Shown piece by piece: positions 4,657-56,907 of a stretch of DNA of 64,000 nt. The DNA is taken from positions 1 to 64,000 of IMG/VR virus record IMGVR_UViG_3300045988_154997; one strand, 5' to 3'. Numbering within the stretch: the first letter of the stretch is position 1; every line of letters starts with the position of its first letter. Source of the stretch: a virus (Duplodnaviria; Heunggongvirae; Uroviricota; Caudoviricetes). Made by a program: the position numbers and the translations under genes. The notes beneath the pieces were generated by a model that had not been told where the DNA came from, searched no databases, and saw only the letters and a program-made list of their open reading frames with translations.

Positions 4657-4911
4657 TCATTTCGATTGATTATTTTCTCGACCATGTAGTTGAACATTCA
4701 AGGCAAACACCTCATTGATCAACTCACCTAAAAGCTGTTCAACAAGTTCGCGATGCTCGCCAAGATGCAAGCACTTAATTGCCCATTCGTACAAGTTGAA
4801 AGCCTGCTCACGATCTTTCATCATTTCACGAGCCTGGGCCAGAAAATCGCTCTCTACGAGCGCAACGACATTAGTCGGGTATGACATGTTGGTTTCCTTA
4901 AAGTGGTTCAT
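4657..4911 (-). CDS. hypothetical protein
   Basis: 84-aa ORF. Confidence 0.45.
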   Translation of the reverse strand: MNHFKETNMSYPTNVVALVESDFLAQAREMMKDREQAFNLYEWAIKCLHLGEHRELVEQLLGELINEVFALNVQLHGRENNQSK

Positions 4912-4992
4912 AAAATCGATTTTAAAGCGTCTGGGAAGGGGTTCTAGTGGATTCTGTAGTGATGTTCAGGTCTGGAGTCTCTGATACAAAAC

Positions 4993-5051
4993 AGCCTGCT
5001 TCCGTATAATAATAATTAATATGTAGTTATTTATATATACAGAAGCAGGCT
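4993..5051 (-). terminator. long-loop hairpin element (arms CCTGCTTC[C/T]GTATA, about 27-nt AT-rich loop) followed by a T-run on the minus strand; copy 1 of 2
   Basis: 16-bp inverted arms 4993..5008 and 5036..5051 with one mismatch; lies just 3' of the methyltransferase gene stop; near-identical copy at 53798..53852. Confidence 0.45.
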
Positions 5052-5072
5052 AATTACAGACGCCAGAACAAA

Positions 5073-5666
5073 CTAAGCAGCCTTCTTTGATGGTCTTTTT
5101 TTCCTGATCACATTCGCAGGATCATACCCTCCCAGACTTTTCATGACGTCCAAAGGGATCTTGCTTATAGAGTGCCCAGCGTCCTGACAGAATCCTCGAA
5201 AAACAACGAGCATACTGCCACCTGGGTTGATGTTTACTTCTACCTGACCCAGATTGACGTCAGGCTCGACAAACGCTACGCGGCCACCAGACAGAATAAT
5301 CGTCTCATTCGCACACTCTGTTGCACGCTCATACCACTTTGTATCTAGGGATTGAGGAATTAGCATCACTGTTGTAACTCCGCGAGCCTGCTCACGTATA
5401 GCCGCATCAATCCAGGGGGAGATTTTGGAGTAGGGTGGATTGAGGAAGGCAATTGTACCTGGCTGTCCCCATTCAGATTTCAAAGCATCACGCTCAACGC
5501 CTATGAAATTAGGCAGCTTTGCATTGTCCTTGTTGCAGGCAACGTCAACATCAAATGTCACTCCAAGATAACGTTGAATGGCAGAAAACAGCCAGTCAGG
5601 TGTTCTCCAGAGGTCACGAAGAGAGTTGTCGCGCTTTCGCTGTTTGATTTTTTCGGCTGCAATCAT
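5073..5666 (-). CDS. DNA N6-adenine methyltransferase (phage Dam-like)
   Basis: FLNPPYS catalytic motif (NPPY) and DVACNKDNAKLPNF region typical of phage N6-adenine MTases. Confidence 0.8.
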   Translation of the reverse strand: MIAAEKIKQRKRDNSLRDLWRTPDWLFSAIQRYLGVTFDVDVACNKDNAKLPNFIGVERDALKSEWGQPGTIAFLNPPYSKISPWIDAAIREQARGVTTVMLIPQSLDTKWYERATECANETIILSGGRVAFVEPDVNLGQVEVNINPGGSMLVVFRGFCQDAGHSISKIPLDVMKSLGGYDPANVIRKKRPSKKAA

Positions 5667-43679: not shown

Positions 43680-43757
43680 CACAGCGTTGAGCGGTCTGGT
43701 TTATGTTAGCGGAGTCTTAATCGAGTTGATTAAAAGGCCAAACCGCTCAACGCTGTG
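43680..43757. repeat. perfect 16-bp inverted repeat (CACAGCGTTGAGCGGT / ACCGCTCAACGCTGTG) with 46-nt loop, abutting the tRNA-Ser 3' end
   Basis: Read directly. Confidence 0.6.
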
Positions 43758-43759
43758 TC

Positions 43760-43846
43760 TGGCGGAGAGTAATGGAATCGAACCATCATCGTTTGCACAA
43801 TGGGACGATTTTCAAGACCGCTTGAGCACCATGCTCCCTACTCTCC
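43760..43846 (-). tRNA. tRNA-Ser (anticodon UGA), type II (long variable arm)
   Basis: Acceptor GGAGAGT/ACTCTCC, discriminator G, encoded CCA; anticodon loop CTTGAAA; T-arm GATGG-TTCGATT-CCATT; D-arm non-canonical (A8), so needs tRNAscan confirmation. Confidence 0.6.
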
Positions 43847-44070
43847 GGCCGTTGTGGTGGCCGGTACTGAATCTCCGGCATACGGTGCAGCCAATTAGGA
43901 CTACGGACGATCACCGCTCGCGAAAGGGAAGATTTGCGGCCGCATTTCCCTAACATCCAAGAAAGCTATCGCATCAGTCTGCGAATCCACCACAACGGTA
44001 AGATCACTACCTTTCGACCAGTCATTGTGCACATGAACGACGATTAACCGTAATGATCTTATCGTTGTAT

Positions 44071-44146
44071 TGGTGCCGGTTAACGGACTCGAACCGCTGA
44101 CATCCTGCTTACAAGGCAGGCGCTCTACCAACTGAGCTAAACCGGC
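44071..44146 (-). tRNA. tRNA-Thr (anticodon UGU)
   Basis: GCCGGTT-TA-GCTC-AGTTGGTA-GAGC-G-CCTGC-CTTGTAA-GCAGG-ATGTC-AGCGG-TTCGAGT-CCGTT-AACCGGC-A-CCA; canonical cloverleaf, 76 nt. Confidence 0.85.
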
Positions 44147-44150
44147 AATT

Positions 44151-44237
44151 TGGTGGGGAGTGATGGAGTCGAACCACCCGAGTCGCAATGACAGTAGATT
44201 TACAGTCTGTCCCGCTACCTCTACGGACTAACTCCCC
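44151..44237 (-). tRNA. tRNA-Tyr (anticodon GUA), type II
   Basis: Acceptor GGGGAGT/ACTCCCC, discriminator A, CCA; D-stem GTCC/GGAC; anticodon loop CTGTAAA; T-arm GGTGG-TTCGACT-CCATC; overall similar to E. coli tRNA-Tyr. Confidence 0.75.
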
Positions 44238-44242
44238 TAAAT

Positions 44243-44317
44243 TGGCGATGGTGGGTGGATTCGAACCACCGACCAGTTGGTTAACAGCCAACTGCTCTAC
44301 CGCTGAGCTACACCATC
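44243..44317 (-). tRNA. tRNA-Asn (anticodon GUU)
   Basis: GATGGTG-TA-GCTC-AGCGGTA-GAGC-A-GTTGG-CTGTTAA-CCAAC-TGGTC-GGTGG-TTCGAAT-CCACC-CACCATC-G-CCA; canonical, 75 nt. Confidence 0.85.
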
Positions 44318-44581
44318 AATTCAGCACTGCCAGTATTTATTACTCAACAGTGCCAATCGCGGCGGTGTTAGTTTCTGCCAGGAAACACACCGCTACTGGC
44401 ACTTTCCGTTAGTGCCAGACGTTTTCGACTTCGCTCAATAGAAGGCAAAATCTTTAAGTAGATGATGTTTCTGAGGACAGCACCTACTTTGTAATTTATA
44501 CAATGTGATGTATGGAATCATTTGTTGTGAAAACAGGCACTAATGGCAACAGTGGTTAAACCTATACAACAATCCTGTCTT

Positions 44582-44705
44582 CACAACGTTGAGGCCACTA
44601 CTCCGATTGAATGTTTGCCCAACATGTTACATATCAACGCTCGCCGGTATCTCTGTGAATAGAACCTTAGAATTGATAAAAATGTAATGGCCTCAACGTT
44701 GTGTG
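44582..44705. repeat. perfect 16-bp inverted repeat (CACAACGTTGAGGCCA) with about 92-nt loop, upstream of the tRNA cluster; arms similar to the repeat at 43680..43757
   Basis: Read directly. Confidence 0.6.
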
Positions 44706-44781
44706 CTGGCTAACCATACCAGCCGGGCTACGTCGCCGCTTTTTAACCCAGTATAAACGACATAATTGAACAAAATGACGT

Positions 44782-44857
44782 AACAGGATGGGCGGTCATT
44801 GGCTAAGAATCCGGGAGTCGTATATGAGTTGAAAATATACTGACCGCCCATTCTGTT
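44782..44857. repeat. 17-bp inverted repeat (AACAGGATGGGCGGTCA / TGACCGCCCATTCTGTT, 1 mismatch) with about 42-nt loop
   Basis: Read directly; followed by a 9-bp hairpin GGAGGGAAC-tctcat-GTTCCCTCC at 44866..44889. Confidence 0.55.
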
Positions 44858-45094
44858 ACTTCATCGGAGGGAACTCTCATGTTCCCTCCTGCGTTCTGCA
44901 ATCACACTCGCTCAGTGTGTCCCATTTCGGTAACGAGGCTGGAAACTGACCTCGCTGGTGTTTGGCTTATTAGGCTACTGCCAGATAGACTTCTTCGTTT
45001 GCACTTGTATTTAAGTTCAAACAGTCGCGTCTCAACGAAAACAAAGTCATCTTATACATAAAAGATAGGTAAGTAAATACTTATTATTGTATTT

Positions 45095-52938: not shown

Positions 52939-53679
52939 TTAATTAGATAGGGGATCAATAAACCGCCGTGCTTCTTCCAGTTCTTCTGGAAAGTGGGCGG
53001 AAATAAGGCGCTCTGGAACGATTTCCATTAGCCAGATAGCAGAGAAAATTGCGCGTATGCGCTTGCTGCGGGGGATGATGCGCAAACGCTCCAGAATCCA
53101 CTCAAAATAGCTTTCCTGAATCGGGTTGAACTGCATGTCTCCCATATGCTTAAAGCTAACCAGAGAGTCATCCAGACGGGTTGTTGCGCGTCTGGATAAT
53201 TTCTCTTCGAATATCTCAATCAGTTCTGGCTGCCATAAATGCTGTGGGCGCGGCAACTTGTCCCACAGACGCCGTGCAGCTGCGGAAAGAACCGTGGAGA
53301 TAAAGTAGTCGTATGAACAGCAATAGCGATCAGCAAACTGGCGTGCTTTCCATAGCGACGTTTTATTGGCAGTCGACAACTCCTGATAAGGCAGGCGTTT
53401 TAACCCGGTGGTGAACGGAGCTGTTTCAAAGTGTTCGCGACCGTGCGTCAGCATGATATTTGAGTACTGACGTTTGTATGCCTCCGTAAAAAGACAGGTG
53501 GCCATGAGAGGATGCATGTCGCGGTAATCAAACCACTTCGTCTCGAAGAGTTCAGCCTCGTCATTGCAGCGCGACAAACCAATGTTTTCAGCGACCCACT
53601 TGTCCATAACAGCGGTATTCCACTCTGTCATGAAGTCGTACTGGTCGTTGTCAATGGTATCAAAAAAGATTTGGCTCAT
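52939..53679 (-). CDS. hypothetical protein
   Basis: ORF-track start is GTG 53688; ATG at 53679 has AGGTGA RBS and the 21-bp palindromic element directly upstream (53691..53711). Confidence 0.5.
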   Translation of the reverse strand: MSQIFFDTIDNDQYDFMTEWNTAVMDKWVAENIGLSRCNDEAELFETKWFDYRDMHPLMATCLFTEAYKRQYSNIMLTHGREHFETAPFTTGLKRLPYQELSTANKTSLWKARQFADRYCCSYDYFISTVLSAAARRLWDKLPRPQHLWQPELIEIFEEKLSRRATTRLDDSLVSFKHMGDMQFNPIQESYFEWILERLRIIPRSKRIRAIFSAIWLMEIVPERLISAHFPEELEEARRFIDPLSN

Positions 53680-53797
53680 GTGGCTCACCTGATAGGTAGT
53701 TACTTACTTATTGCAATGAGCGGATGATAGCGACTGGTGGCAGTTTTTGGAAGTGGAAACGGAAGGGAATGTGTCTGGGAAGTTGGCATAGAAAAAG

Positions 53798-53852
53798 ACC
53801 TGCTTCCGTATAAATAATAATAAGTAACTTAGTATTTATATACAGAAGCAGG
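53798..53852 (-). terminator. long-loop hairpin element, copy 2 (arms ACCTGCTTC[C/T]GTATA) followed by CTTTTTCT on minus strand
   Basis: Near-identical arms to 4993..5051; immediately 3' of the 53877..55073 gene. Confidence 0.45.
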
Positions 53853-53876
53853 TTCCAAATTCAACCAGCAGGATGC

Positions 53877-55073
53877 TTAAACATCTTTTAGAAAGCCTGG
53901 AAACCAATGTTTCATGATATACCTAAAATGTGCTCTAGTTGGTTCAAAAACCTGTCTAGATACCAGCGCTCCATCAGGATGATTCTGAACAGACTGTTCT
54001 TTTTCCATATCGTAAAAATTATGAGTTATCTCTGGGGGGAAGAAAATATTTCTGTCCAGTGGCACTGTCGCAAAAGGATTGTAGTAAATATGAAGGCCGT
54101 CAAAGTGCGTCTCTTCATGAGCAGTGGAATGGCAAACTACAATATCCGCACCAGTGACTTCGTTATTTAAAAAATGCCGATATGTAGTGATGAAATGATC
54201 AGGACCTATCCTTTGTGTGTGCTTTCCCTCGTTTTTCATCCCTTCATTGGCGATGAAATCATTCACATCAATGGCTCGATATCGTGTTGACCTTACATAT
54301 CTACCGATACCGCTTTGAACCACGGCTTTTCCAAAAGTGCCGGTGGTGGAGAAAATAACCGCACTTATTTCTTTATATGAGTCGTTAGTAAATATACCTA
54401 ATGGAATTTCAACGTCTTCATTCTTTTTGATTGAGGTAACTTTAGTTTGGCTGCCAGTCACCAAATTTCTGGTGGTAGGTTCCTCAATGCCAAACAACAC
54501 TCGATTGATGATTGTGTTATTTTGAGACAATGATAAATCGGAGTCAAAGGGTGCAAGCGCCAGAACAAACGGCTTATTAACTACATGAGACATCGTAGAG
54601 TACGGGAATTTTTTGCCATTAACTCCTGTAAAAAGATCATGTTTGTCTTTGATTTTTCCGATTAATTTTAGCGTTGATTGATGTTTGAATTTTGATTCGC
54701 TAAAAAGAGCACCTGCAGGTGGATTATGTGGCCGATCTGATATCACAGCTTCGACGTTAAACTGGTAGCCTGACGGTGTAGTAACACAGAAATCGGGACT
54801 GTCTTTTGTGTAGTCGACAGAATAATCGAGACGAATAAACATTTCGTTCAGATACAATTCCCATAAGGCGGAATTGAAGGTTGTCTGAAACTCTTTAACG
54901 AATTTAGTCTGCTCACCGCTACGCTCCAGTAACCCACGCCCCCACGACTGTATCACTTCTCTTACTGGAGCATATGTATTATCTTGATAAATCTGTTTAA
55001 AAGATTCGTGCAGCTTGTTTTTTGCTATTTTGGTTGAGAACAAATCCATTATTAGCCTCACTAACCAGTTCAA
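53877..55073 (-). CDS. hypothetical protein, possible degenerate PD-(D/E)xK fold (partner of DUF2971 protein; candidate defence cassette)
   Basis: 398-aa AT-rich ORF directly downstream of the DUF2971 gene; SPDFCVTTPSGYQFNVEAVIS loosely fits a D...E-x-x nuclease core (weak). Confidence 0.45.
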   Translation of the reverse strand: MNWLVRLIMDLFSTKIAKNKLHESFKQIYQDNTYAPVREVIQSWGRGLLERSGEQTKFVKEFQTTFNSALWELYLNEMFIRLDYSVDYTKDSPDFCVTTPSGYQFNVEAVISDRPHNPPAGALFSESKFKHQSTLKLIGKIKDKHDLFTGVNGKKFPYSTMSHVVNKPFVLALAPFDSDLSLSQNNTIINRVLFGIEEPTTRNLVTGSQTKVTSIKKNEDVEIPLGIFTNDSYKEISAVIFSTTGTFGKAVVQSGIGRYVRSTRYRAIDVNDFIANEGMKNEGKHTQRIGPDHFITTYRHFLNNEVTGADIVVCHSTAHEETHFDGLHIYYNPFATVPLDRNIFFPPEITHNFYDMEKEQSVQNHPDGALVSRQVFEPTRAHFRYIMKHWFPGFLKDV

Positions 55074-55115: not shown

Positions 55116-55835
55116 CTACTTCAGCTTTTCTTTGACAAGAAGATAACCATCATCAGGTGTACTCATTTTGTAAACCTCGATGCTCGTGTCTAGCTGTGTC
55201 CGGGCATATTCTTCTACTTCAGGAGAAACGTTATACCCAAGAATGATCTCTCTAATATATTTCTTATCAAATGCCTGAGCGCCTATTTTTTTAGTAATAA
55301 CCCTTTGTTCTTCCTCATATTTCCAGCATTCGTGCTTGTAGAAAAAGAGCTTATCAAAAAGTACCTTAAACTCATCTGTAACTTCATCGAACACGGGAAC
55401 AGAAGGTATATATTTCACATTATCAAAGCTGTGATACCCCTCAATAGAGGTAACAAAATCATCATCAAAGCCTATGCAGAAACCTTTATGCGACACTGAG
55501 TAATGTGACCACATCAAGATGTTATCTTCGTTTGGTGACAAGCACACCACACCAAAAGCCCCTAATGATTCTTTCCGCAAATCCACAGCCAACGATTTTG
55601 CAGCTTCAGGAGCTACAGCATCCCAGTCTTCAAAGGAAAAATCCTTACATCCATTGTCTTCAAAGTGTTTCCGGCGCTCCACTTCTGTACCTCCCATCGT
55701 TATCGAAACTTTGAACTCTGATGGGTCGTTGAATGAAGAAGGTGCGCTAGCAGAGATAGTGCCGTCCTCTACAAACCGTTTGAGGTTACGTAACACTTTT
55801 TGCGAATCTTCACTTCCAATATATTTGTAGAGCAT
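55116..55835 (-). CDS. DUF2971 family protein
   Basis: N-terminal MLYKYIGSEDSQKVLRNL...SSFNDPSEF and central LMWSHYSVSHKGFCIGF match the DUF2971 signatures as I recall them; start may instead be the upstream TTG at 55874. Confidence 0.55.
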   Translation of the reverse strand: MLYKYIGSEDSQKVLRNLKRFVEDGTISASAPSSFNDPSEFKVSITMGGTEVERRKHFEDNGCKDFSFEDWDAVAPEAAKSLAVDLRKESLGAFGVVCLSPNEDNILMWSHYSVSHKGFCIGFDDDFVTSIEGYHSFDNVKYIPSVPVFDEVTDEFKVLFDKLFFYKHECWKYEEEQRVITKKIGAQAFDKKYIREIILGYNVSPEVEEYARTQLDTSIEVYKMSTPDDGYLLVKEKLK

Positions 55836-55879
55836 TAGGGAACCTATAGAAAGAGGTGCCAAGCAGCACCTCAATAAAA

Positions 55880-56239
55880 TTAACCTTTCTTCATCAACTC
55901 GCGTTTGATTTCATCGGTACGCATCGTGACGTCGGCAGCAGTGATCGCCTCGTTAAGTTTCACGATATCCTCGATTTCCTGCGGCGACTTCTCTGCCAGA
56001 TGGAAAATAGCAGCACGAATCACATCAGAGCGGGTGAATTTCTCGAAGCGAGGGATGAACTTCATCATCTCCAGCAGTTCGAAGTATTCGTCTTCCAGTG
56101 ACATTGTGCGGCTTTTAATTTTCTCTTTGCCACGAGTCGGGCGTCCCTGTGGTCTGACTGGTTGGCGCAAAGGAGTTGTGTTCTTAGCCGGTGCATCAGG
56201 CTCTTTGCGCTTTGCTAGGTCACCCATTTTCATGGACAT
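55880..56239 (-). CDS. ribbon-helix-helix centromere-binding protein (ParG-like partner of ParA)
   Basis: Basic/Pro-rich N-terminal tail then RHH-like SRTMSLEDEYFELLEMM...RSDVIRAAIFHLAEK; directly downstream of parA. Confidence 0.5.
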   Translation of the reverse strand: MSMKMGDLAKRKEPDAPAKNTTPLRQPVRPQGRPTRGKEKIKSRTMSLEDEYFELLEMMKFIPRFEKFTRSDVIRAAIFHLAEKSPQEIEDIVKLNEAITAADVTMRTDEIKRELMKKG

Positions 56240-56907
56240 TATTCTTCTTCCTCCAGACTCAACAGATAATCTACAAATTCTTCAAACTCGGCTTCCGCCT
56301 TTTTGTCGCGCTCGCTACCGGTCATTTCAAAGATAGAACGACCAGACTCTTCCGCATCATCGTAGACGTTGCGGTTATATAGATTGACAGGCGCAGACTC
56401 GATGCCAAACGTCTCGACAATCTCTTTAGCCGCCAGAATGCGAGACACTTGTGATGGCAAAGCCGGGCACTGGTTCATGACCGCGCGGACCTTCACTTTA
56501 TCGTTTACATTGCGAACATTGTCGATAATAGGATCGATGTCACGTAAAGATTTCAAATCACGACGCTTAGGACGCAGCGGGATAATGATAACGTCAGCCA
56601 TCAGCATCGCTTGTCGCTGAATTTCGGAGTCGAAGCCACCAGCATCTACCACTACATACTCAGCTCTACCCTGAAGCGATTTTAGGTGCTTAATGATGTC
56701 ATCCTGAACGTATGCAAAAGGAATCAGCTCAAGGTCTTCGTTCTGTCGACGGTCTTCACACCAGCTCGTTGTCGTGCGCTGAATATCTATATCGGTGATA
56801 TAAACCTTCTTCTTCTTTTTGACTTTCAGGCAAACGGCAATTTGCTGGGCAACGGTGGATTTGCCAGGCCCGCCCTTTGTGCCGCCAACCACAAAGATCT
56901 TGGTCAT
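56239..56907 (-). CDS. parA: ParA-family partition ATPase (small, type Ib-like)
   Basis: Deviant Walker A KIFVVGGTKGGPGKST; 222 aa. Confidence 0.8.
   Translation of the reverse strand: MTKIFVVGGTKGGPGKSTVAQQIAVCLKVKKKKKVYITDIDIQRTTTSWCEDRRQNEDLELIPFAYVQDDIIKHLKSLQGRAEYVVVDAGGFDSEIQRQAMLMADVIIIPLRPKRRDLKSLRDIDPIIDNVRNVNDKVKVRAVMNQCPALPSQVSRILAAKEIVETFGIESAPVNLYNRNVYDDAEESGRSIFEMTGSERDKKAEAEFEEFVDYLLSLEEEE

Follow-up and report, generated by a model that had tools for sequence, protein, structure and literature searches.

A terminator-like palindrome in three copies at gene-block junctions of SSU5-like phage-plasmids

Two distant loci in a 64,000-nucleotide stretch of viral DNA (positions 1 to 64,000 of IMG/VR record IMGVR_UViG_3300045988_154997, Caudoviricetes; hereafter the window) carry inverted repeats with the same arms, and the question that they raise is why one particular hairpin sequence should recur at two separate gene ends. 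A sequence-only reading had described the pair as a repeated, terminator-like element with an unusually large loop, possibly serving two functions (for example terminator plus protein-binding site) or derived from a mobile repeat. Comparison with related genomes indicates that they are two of three copies of a conserved palindrome at fixed gene-block junctions of SSU5-like phage-plasmids. These junctions lie between the Dam methylase gene and orf84 (site 1), between parA/parB plus cargo and the replication genes (site 2), and upstream of terS (site 3).

The window itself belongs to an Escherichia (E. coli) SSU5-like phage-plasmid. The region around copy 1 is 97.7-99% identical to the Escherichia phages CMS-2020a, Cyrano and PhiR41_1, and 77-84% identical to Salmonella phage SSU5 and its Klebsiella relatives. 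Genes around the hairpin copies are essentially all co-directional, and the GC skew of the window is monotonic. E. coli, Shigella, Salmonella Typhi and Klebsiella often harbour SSU5-like phage-plasmids, which carry defence, anti-defence and resistance genes; the regulatory architecture of these elements is essentially undescribed. The palindrome offers three precise landmarks that divide the ~105-kb co-directional genome into blocks, one for packaging, structure, lysis and partition, one for replication, recombination and nucleotide metabolism, and one holding the remaining accessory genes. The two window copies and their closest neighbours are listed here.

4995..5049, minus strand: copy 1 of the palindrome (site 1), arms 4995-5008 and 5036-5049, extendable to 4993-5051; interior AT-rich and partly self-paired
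4986..4994, minus strand: U-rich tract after copy 1 (CUGUUUUGU on the coding strand); T-run kept in relatives, in several sequence contexts
4970..4975, minus strand: motif CCAGAC (coding strand), ~20 nt downstream of copy 1; second occurrence at 4929-4934
5063-5067, minus strand: TCTGG (coding strand), inverted partner of CCAGAC, upstream of copy 1
5073..5666, minus strand: Dam-family N6-adenine methyltransferase gene, upstream of copy 1 (PF05869, E = 2.5e-38)
4657..4911, minus strand: 84-aa ORF (orf84), first gene downstream of copy 1, conserved in relatives
53799..53852, minus strand: copy 2 of the palindrome (site 2), arms 53799-53812 and 53839-53852
53790..53798, minus strand: U-rich tract after copy 2 (UCUUUUUCU on the coding strand)
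53773..53778, minus strand: CCCAGAC motif, ~20 nt downstream of copy 2
52939..53688, minus strand: 249-aa conserved gene, first of the helicase-primase block downstream of copy 2

The two copies with identical 14-bp arms are present as first described. With flanking pairs included, the arms of copy 1 (4993-5008 / 5036-5051) are 16 nt long, 94% complementary and 27 nt apart, and those of copy 2 (53798-53812 / 53839-53853) are 15 nt long, 93% complementary and 26 nt apart. The arms read (G)CCTGCTTCYGTATA / TATACRGAAGCAGG(C), and their 14-bp core, CCTGCTTC[C]GTATA / TATAC[A]GAAGCAGG, is identical in copies 1 and 2 and has no other exact occurrence in the window. The 14-mer CCTGCTTCYGTATA occurs exactly four times in the window, once per arm; allowing up to two mismatches yields seven matches against 0.6 expected, a number reached by none of 100 shuffles. 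A lone arm-like 14-mer with two mismatches (CCTGCTCACGTATA) lies at 5387-5400 inside the methyltransferase gene and is kept in Cyrano; it is probably there by chance.

RNA of the minus strand is predicted to fold more stably (-29.0 and -27.5 kcal/mol for copies 1 and 2; z = -5.6 and -7.3) than RNA of the plus strand (-25.6 and -23.0 kcal/mol), the sole C.A mismatch of the plus strand being a G-U pair in minus-strand RNA. The base of the minus-strand stem is CCUGC/GCAGG. Because the loop sequence is AT-rich and partly self-complementary, the predicted RNA forms an irregular stem of considerable length, 17-19 bp plus 4-7 bp (~25 bp), with internal loops, and the apical loop of this composite stem measures 5-8 nt. 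The AT-rich loop of about 27 nt that had been reported is therefore correct as a spacing and a composition, but it does not stay open, as its interior is partly self-paired around a small apical loop.

Both copies are located 24-25 nt downstream of a minus-strand stop codon and ahead of the next minus-strand gene. The stop codon is that of the Dam-like methyltransferase gene at copy 1 (5073-5075) and that of a 398-aa ORF at copy 2 (53877-53879); beyond copy 2, the 249-aa gene is followed by a DnaB-like helicase and a primase. Directly after the hairpin, the minus strand reads CTGTTTTGT at copy 1 and TCTTTTTCT at copy 2, in agreement with the T-run noted earlier. The placement just past a minus-strand stop and the methyltransferase before copy 1 had also been read correctly, but the DUF2971 gene named as direct neighbour of copy 2 is not adjacent to it. 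A PD-T7-5-like gene intervenes, and DUF2971 lies one gene further up.

The conserved sequence extends beyond the hairpin. The E. coli, Salmonella and Klebsiella lineages all keep an outer inverted repeat, GGTCTGGGAG ... CTCCCAGACC, at each of the three sites, with the layout GGTCTGGGAG-N~12-[hairpin]-N14-25-CTCCCAGACC in the common type, and at sites 1 and 3 a second CCCAGAA is found ~20 nt beyond it (loci L237, L346, L187 and others). The repeated unit flanking and including the hairpin thus spans ~110-150 nt. The outer helix GUCUGGGAG/CUCCCAGAC is absent as an RNA structure from the RNAalifold prediction, and sequence conservation of this motif is too high for covariation to show.

A scan of IMG/VR with the exact pattern returned at least 116 loci, and the 120 instances among the matches listed fall into three flank classes, except for a handful with one unclustered or missing flank. 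Both flanks are conserved at site 1; at site 2 the downstream flank is conserved and the upstream flank occurs in at least 13 unrelated versions. A second retrieval through flanking protein genes, independent of the hairpin sequence, found the hairpin in 67/80, 78/80 and 73/75 loci at the three sites. Cyrano holds exactly three copies in the ~103 kb scanned, which leaves out 100001-105379. Across more than 300 instances, no context other than the three orthologous junctions was encountered, and the genes on either side of each site are co-directional. Scanning IMG/VR for the lone 14-mer gave chance matches only, a megablast of a distant locus against plasmids gave no match, and in papers on SSU5-like elements we found no description of the hairpin.

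When one genome per species was scanned for 185,579 prokaryotic species, only seven matches to the element were obtained, none of them chromosomal. Six can be assigned to site 2 or site 3 on phage-plasmid-like contigs from Kluyvera, Buttiauxella, Yersinia pestis and one metagenome-assembled genome (MAG), and the seventh (L490) shows only a 39-nt match to the downstream flank of site 2. Since every instance sits at one of three orthologous junctions and none in a chromosome, the palindrome is a backbone feature and not a dispersed mobile repeat, which leaves the proposed mobile-repeat origin unsupported. Nor is the element limited to two copies that related genomes lack: a third copy was found, and the element is conserved in relatives.

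This third copy lies outside the window, between an 88-aa gene and terS/terL. In the common type, site 3 has the same hairpin without a U-tract (CTTAGTAAGACATG, TTCTGAATAC), and a separate canonical terminator is located ~80 nt past the hairpin, just before terS. The terS leaders of Cyrano (L121:60-135) and SSU5 (L119:60-135) hold two direct repeats of AAACAAGTTG(G)TT(T)TAG, and their terminator (AGAGCGC-loop-GCGCTCT followed by GTGTGTTTT) immediately precedes the terS ribosome-binding site. Repeat and terminator together suggest attenuation or antitermination control of the late genes. The GenBank record of SSU5 (JQ965645.1) starts and ends inside the site-3 loop (L119:1-20; L120:2960-3000). 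The Cyrano record likewise has its start and end in this loop, shifted by 1 nt (L121:1-17; L122:2960-3000), and was probably re-oriented on SSU5; another related record begins at a gene ATG. The ends of the SSU5 record could mark a physical genome end, such as a cos or pac site, an assembly break at the palindrome or an arbitrary choice. Two of the species-representative matches also concern this site: the site-3 element recurs unchanged, between SSU5-like flanks, on a 108-kb contig of Yersinia pestis NCTC5923 (L487), and again in a MAG labelled Bacillota (L486), whose label likely reflects mis-binning or contamination.

Variation in the arms offers a view of the form in which the element may act. 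Arms of the E. coli/Salmonella/Klebsiella type hardly vary at positions 1-3, 7 and 10-14. Changes fall at positions 4-6, 8 and 9, among them a compensated change from C-G to U-A at position 8 in 10 loci, and C-G, U-A and U-G are all seen at position 9. L277, L278 and a Providencia plasmid share the arm form GCC(G/T)TGCTCCCATA / TATGGGAGCA(C/A)GGC, in which several changes and indels are compensated in both arms; proteins of this plasmid show 33-82% identity to proteins of the window. The arms read GCCTTGCTCCCATA / TATGGGAGCAAGGC in L277 and GCCGTGCTCCCATA / TATGGGAGCACGGC at sites 1 and 2 of the Providencia plasmid, with a derivative of the same at its site 3. Arms of the E. coli/Salmonella/Klebsiella type stand 21-29 nt apart. 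The distance rises to 36 nt in pFF979_1 and to 51, 118 and ~125 nt in the Providencia plasmid, where the interiors are AT-rich. Compensated changes and indels, combined with a five-fold variation in spacing, point to an intramolecular fold-back of RNA or single-stranded DNA and argue against a dimer site on duplex DNA. Pairing of the arms is under selection. A duplex palindromic binding site, such as an operator or a parS centromere, was rejected, as it needs a fixed half-site spacing and the spacing here runs from 21 to ~125 bp.

With moderate confidence, we consider the two window copies to be intrinsic (Rho-independent) terminators, which is their most likely role. The coding-strand transcript would fold into a GC-containing base of 14-19 bp and an AU-rich, partly paired top, and then enter a U-rich tract. 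Copy 1 would in this way end the nucleotide-metabolism/Dam methylase block, and copy 2 the parA-parB-defence-cargo block ahead of the helicase-primase block. That transcription stops at both copies we infer from features shared with known terminators. A stable stem with a G-C base is found on the transcribed strand, and a U-rich tract directly 3' of the stem is found at both window copies and not at site 3. Among unique flanks, the first 8 nt after the hairpin on the coding strand contain on average 4.2 T (site 1) and 5.3 T (site 2), versus 2.9-3.5 on the other strand. The tract occurs at these sites in the contexts CTGTTTTG, CTTTTTAAG, CTTTTCC, TCTTTTAAAAG and TCTTTTTCT, and it persists in relatives with otherwise changed flanks. 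Of 35 unique site-2 sequences, 29 have the more stable fold in the coding-strand RNA, and G-U takes up 97 cells there against 4 for C.A.

A diverged lineage, the pFF979_1 type, adds to this picture. Its long hairpin is degenerate at sites 1 and 2, where nothing but the 3'-arm remnant TATAG(G)AGCCAGGC survives. This remnant precedes a canonical terminator of GC stem and T-run that takes the place of the hairpin, and the two terminators are homologous to each other. At site 3 of this lineage the long hairpin is kept and is followed by TCTCTTTTTAGTGTTTTTTG. With canonical terminators at the decayed sites and a retained hairpin at site 3, a terminator-like structure is always present at all three junctions. 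In relatives of this type (L493:26476-26700; L494:3340-3460), CCCAGA/TCTGGG motifs flank the terminator in the opposite arrangement.

Other observations fit canonical termination less well. The Providencia plasmid lacks the U-tract at site 1 and has a weak one at site 2, yet it keeps the hairpin at all three sites. As neither site 3 nor Providencia has a consistent U-tract, the feature common to all copies is the hairpin and not the terminator signature, and conservation of the hairpin itself points to a role that goes past canonical termination or differs from it. The additional function raised in the first reading may therefore exist. The terminator-like character originally assigned to the element is supported at sites 1 and 2, where the U-tract survives in changed flanks and the same junctions carry canonical terminators in the diverged lineage, but it does not extend evenly to site 3 and to Providencia. 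Klebsiella-type site 1 has two mismatches in the coding-strand hairpin, and there the antisense RNA is more stable in 15/24 unique sequences; a hand tally of distinct changes, including two distant-lineage site-3 hairpins, gave ~13 G-U versus 7 C.A, which is not significant. A typical intrinsic terminator is a compact hairpin with a stem of 5-14 bp and a loop of 3-8 nt. By this standard the present stem has an unusual length and a high AU content, and neither window copy was called by a simple consensus terminator scan (loops of 3-8 nt). A simple consensus scan also detected no sigma-70 promoter in the minus-strand interval from either hairpin to the next gene, so that complete termination would leave the downstream genes unexpressed unless termination is regulated or a non-consensus promoter serves them. 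Termination may thus be incomplete or under regulation, or the main task of the hairpin may be to process or stabilise long transcripts.

The copies at the three sites evolve in concert, converting each other in either orientation. Cross-site edit distances were compared within versus between genomes by a permutation test on 24 unique genome triples. Within-genome distances are smaller than between-genome distances for sites 1 and 3 (p = 0.00015) and for sites 2 and 3 (p = 0.011); for sites 1 and 2 the difference is not significant in the same 24 triples. Some genomes show no difference between sites 2 and 3 at any of the 55 positions. The loop variant TTAAATAATAAAT is common to all three sites in one lineage, as is the arm variant of Providencia. 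Inversion is seen in Klebsiella-type site-1 arms, which are the exact reverse complement of Klebsiella-type site-3 arms, and in the loop of copy 2, which is inverted in Cyrano relative to the window. Conversion between copies suffices to explain the likeness of the two window copies without a factor that reads their sequence. With three copies evolving in concert, sometimes inverted, the element is a compact and clear instance of gene conversion among dispersed palindromes of one phage genome.

The variable upstream flank of site 2 corresponds to a slot for exchangeable genes, which is occupied in the window by the following features.

53877..55073, minus strand: PD-T7-5-like anti-phage defence gene (398 aa), directly upstream of copy 2 (PDLC04110, E = 1.5e-139)
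55116..55835, minus strand: DUF2971 / PDC-S31 candidate defence gene, cargo
55853..55872, minus strand: small hairpin resembling a canonical terminator (GAGGTGCTGCTTGGCACCTC + TTTCT), after the parB-like stop codon and before the DUF2971 cargo
55880..56907, minus strand: partition operon that forms the conserved upstream border of the slot, encoding a ParA-type ATPase (56239-56907) plus a 119-aa partner (55880-56239)

The slot extends from the stop codon of the 119-aa partition gene to the site-2 element, and its content differs between genomes. In some it is empty, the stop codon being followed by 8 nt, GGTCTGGCAG, 12 nt and the hairpin; elsewhere it holds PD-T4-3 (GIY-YIG), PDC-S49 (KAP NTPase), unknown genes, or DUF2971 genes in one orientation or the other. 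Cargo in the window has a lower GC content (0.407). Judged by this gene content, the slot looks like a defence hotspot of SSU5-like phage-plasmids. Being part of the conserved backbone, copy 2 forms the fixed downstream border of the slot, within which defence genes would be exchanged by recombination. A preprint has reported PD-T7-5 and PD-T4-3 in SSU5-group elements of E. coli and Shigella, and describes neither slot nor hairpin. The copy-2 border is a practical guide in the search for new defence genes and in the engineering of cargo into SSU5-like elements.

The closest known thing in function is the intrinsic terminator. The palindrome shares with it a G-C stem base and a U-rich tract on the transcribed strand, a position after a stop codon between co-directional genes, and the canonical terminators that a diverged lineage has at the same junctions. 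It departs from it in a far longer stem (~25 bp) whose upper half is AU-rich and imperfect, in a sequence common to three distant sites that evolve in concert, and in the missing U-tract of one of the three copies and of some Providencia copies. We rate the element as a family-specific, three-copy, concertedly evolving terminator-like palindrome. Known RNA families, antitermination and phage regulatory RNAs among them, give no match: at the gathering score, only tRNAs pass the Rfam 15 covariance models in the window, and a local E-value Rfam search gave only sub-threshold matches to miRNA-like hairpins.

Several repeated elements of phages and bacteria resemble the palindrome in part. In a proposal attributed to Arbiol, Comeau and Krisch (2010), the PeSL (promoter-early stem-loop) cassettes of T4-type phages are said to mediate modular shuffling. 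The palindrome is likewise a repeated, conserved intergenic stem-loop bordering a hypervariable phage slot, and such repeats could be portable homology for exchange. Unlike PeSL cassettes, it is not followed by a consensus early sigma-70 promoter in a simple consensus scan, has only three copies at fixed sites, and occurs on one side of the slot only, the other border being the parB-like stop codon. REP/BIME and ERIC sequences of enterobacteria are also imperfect palindromes in transcribed intergenic 3' gene ends and could stabilise upstream mRNA; the palindrome, however, is not dispersed, with three orthologous sites per element and none in a chromosome, and neither a transposase nor target-site duplications were seen in association with it. 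A REP/MITE-type mobile repeat was rejected on the same grounds and because 185,579 species-representative genomes gave just seven matches. In phage T7, the RNase III sites between genes are similar in that several long hairpins with shared sequence lie between co-directional phage genes. They differ in having a characteristic internal loop, whereas the palindrome has U-tracts at two of its three sites and its processing is putative. Integron attC sites share imperfect inverted repeats, a centre of variable length and a place at the 3' end of exchangeable genes. In contrast to attC sites, the arms lack the core sites RYYYAAC ... GTTRRRY, no integron integrase is found near the palindrome, a single palindrome serves the slot even with two-gene cargo, and copies also occur at non-variable junctions, so that this candidate was rejected.

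Further candidates were discarded as well. The window copies are not attL and attR of a 49-kb island, since the same copies and the third are backbone features of every related circular element. A dimer-resolution or tyrosine-recombinase site is rejected by reasoning alone, as the spacer is too long and too variable and three direct copies would delete the genome. Read by eye, the CTGT...ACAG spacing is wrong for a LexA box, and there is no WATCAA motif for an IHF site. Sigma-54 or sigma-70 promoters in the flanks or loop are represented by weak, non-conserved matches only, and no GC-skew switch marks a replication origin or terminus at the copies.

Three readings other than termination deserve to be weighed. 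The coding-strand hairpin (~25 bp) might be an RNA processing or stability element, acting as an exonuclease barrier and/or an RNase III-type site between gene blocks, which is possible, if unlikely, and could coexist with termination at sites 1 and 2. All three copies are found just after a stop codon between co-directional genes, the hairpin is kept where the U-tract is absent (site 3 and Providencia site 1), and the lack of a consensus promoter after the hairpins fits read-through, polycistronic RNA. E. coli RNase III has a minimum stem-length requirement, which the predicted stems of 17-19 bp plus 4-7 bp would reach. The conserved U-tract at sites 1 and 2 would, however, be superfluous for processing, and Klebsiella-type site-1 copies tolerate their two coding-strand mismatches. 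The same strand-specific U-tract is left unexplained if the palindrome works at the DNA level, as a hairpin or cruciform whose AT-rich centre aids extrusion and which is cut or bound by the element's own recombination machinery. It would then be a recombination hotspot or a start of recombination-dependent replication or genome processing, and would drive cargo exchange beside copy 2. We regard this as rather unlikely. It agrees with the mutual homogenisation of the copies (significant for sites 1-3 and 2-3), including full identity of sites 2 and 3 in some genomes and the inverted Klebsiella arms and Cyrano loop, although short repeats can homogenise without being specialised sites. It is also in line with the inconsistent strand asymmetry of the fold, the at least 13 unrelated cargo variants abutting copy 2, and the SbcC/SbcD-like, RuvC-like, RecA-like, UvsY-like and gp32-like proteins in the annotation by the depositors of Cyrano. 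The SSU5 record that begins and ends in the site-3 loop would fit, but its start may be arbitrary or an assembly break. Replacement of the hairpin by canonical terminators at the same junctions in one lineage and the absence of a GC-skew switch at either copy speak against a DNA-level role. In its furthest form, the three palindromes would not primarily be terminators but extruded hairpins or cruciforms, processed by SbcCD/Mre11-Rad50-like, RuvC-like and RecA/UvsY/gp32-like machinery of the element itself, seeding recombination-dependent replication or genome processing, homogenising each other and docking defence-cassette swaps beside parA/parB; this combination is distinctly unlikely.

Highly doubtful, in our estimate, is a hairpin that serves as recognition site of a lineage-specific trans-acting factor and co-ordinates expression or segregation from three dispersed sites. 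Such a factor could be an RNA-binding protein that counteracts or enhances termination, comparable to the lambda N/boxB and HK022 put systems, a duplex-DNA repressor, or a centromere protein of parA/parB. In a variant related to the furthest form given above, a lineage-specific factor would read the hairpin at the three junctions and switch the whole co-directional genome between plasmid and lytic expression. The arms are nearly invariant across E. coli, Salmonella and Klebsiella even though neighbouring proteins are 61-90% identical, the Providencia arm change affects all three sites together, and the sites precede the three main blocks (packaging/structural, replication and post-methylase). 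The conserved flanking motifs GTCTGGGAG / CTCCCAGAC resemble binding sites, and copy 2 adjoins parA/parB; dispersed palindromic centromeres occur in the plasmid prophage N15. Visible gene conversion between the copies nevertheless suffices for a common arm sequence, and arm spacing from 21 to ~125 bp excludes a simple dimer on duplex DNA. There is also neither a candidate factor nor an Rfam match. Intrinsic termination at sites 1 and 2 accounts for the strand-specific U-tract, and it remains our preferred reading.

Other inverted repeats of the window have a different setting. Four long inverted repeats, at 43680-43757, 43987-44073, 44524-44587 and 44775-44864, are interspersed among the tRNA genes (Ser, Thr, Tyr, Asn) of the cluster at 43680-44864 and have arms of 14-24 nt with 36-42 nt between them. 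They may be further structured RNAs or decayed tRNA genes.
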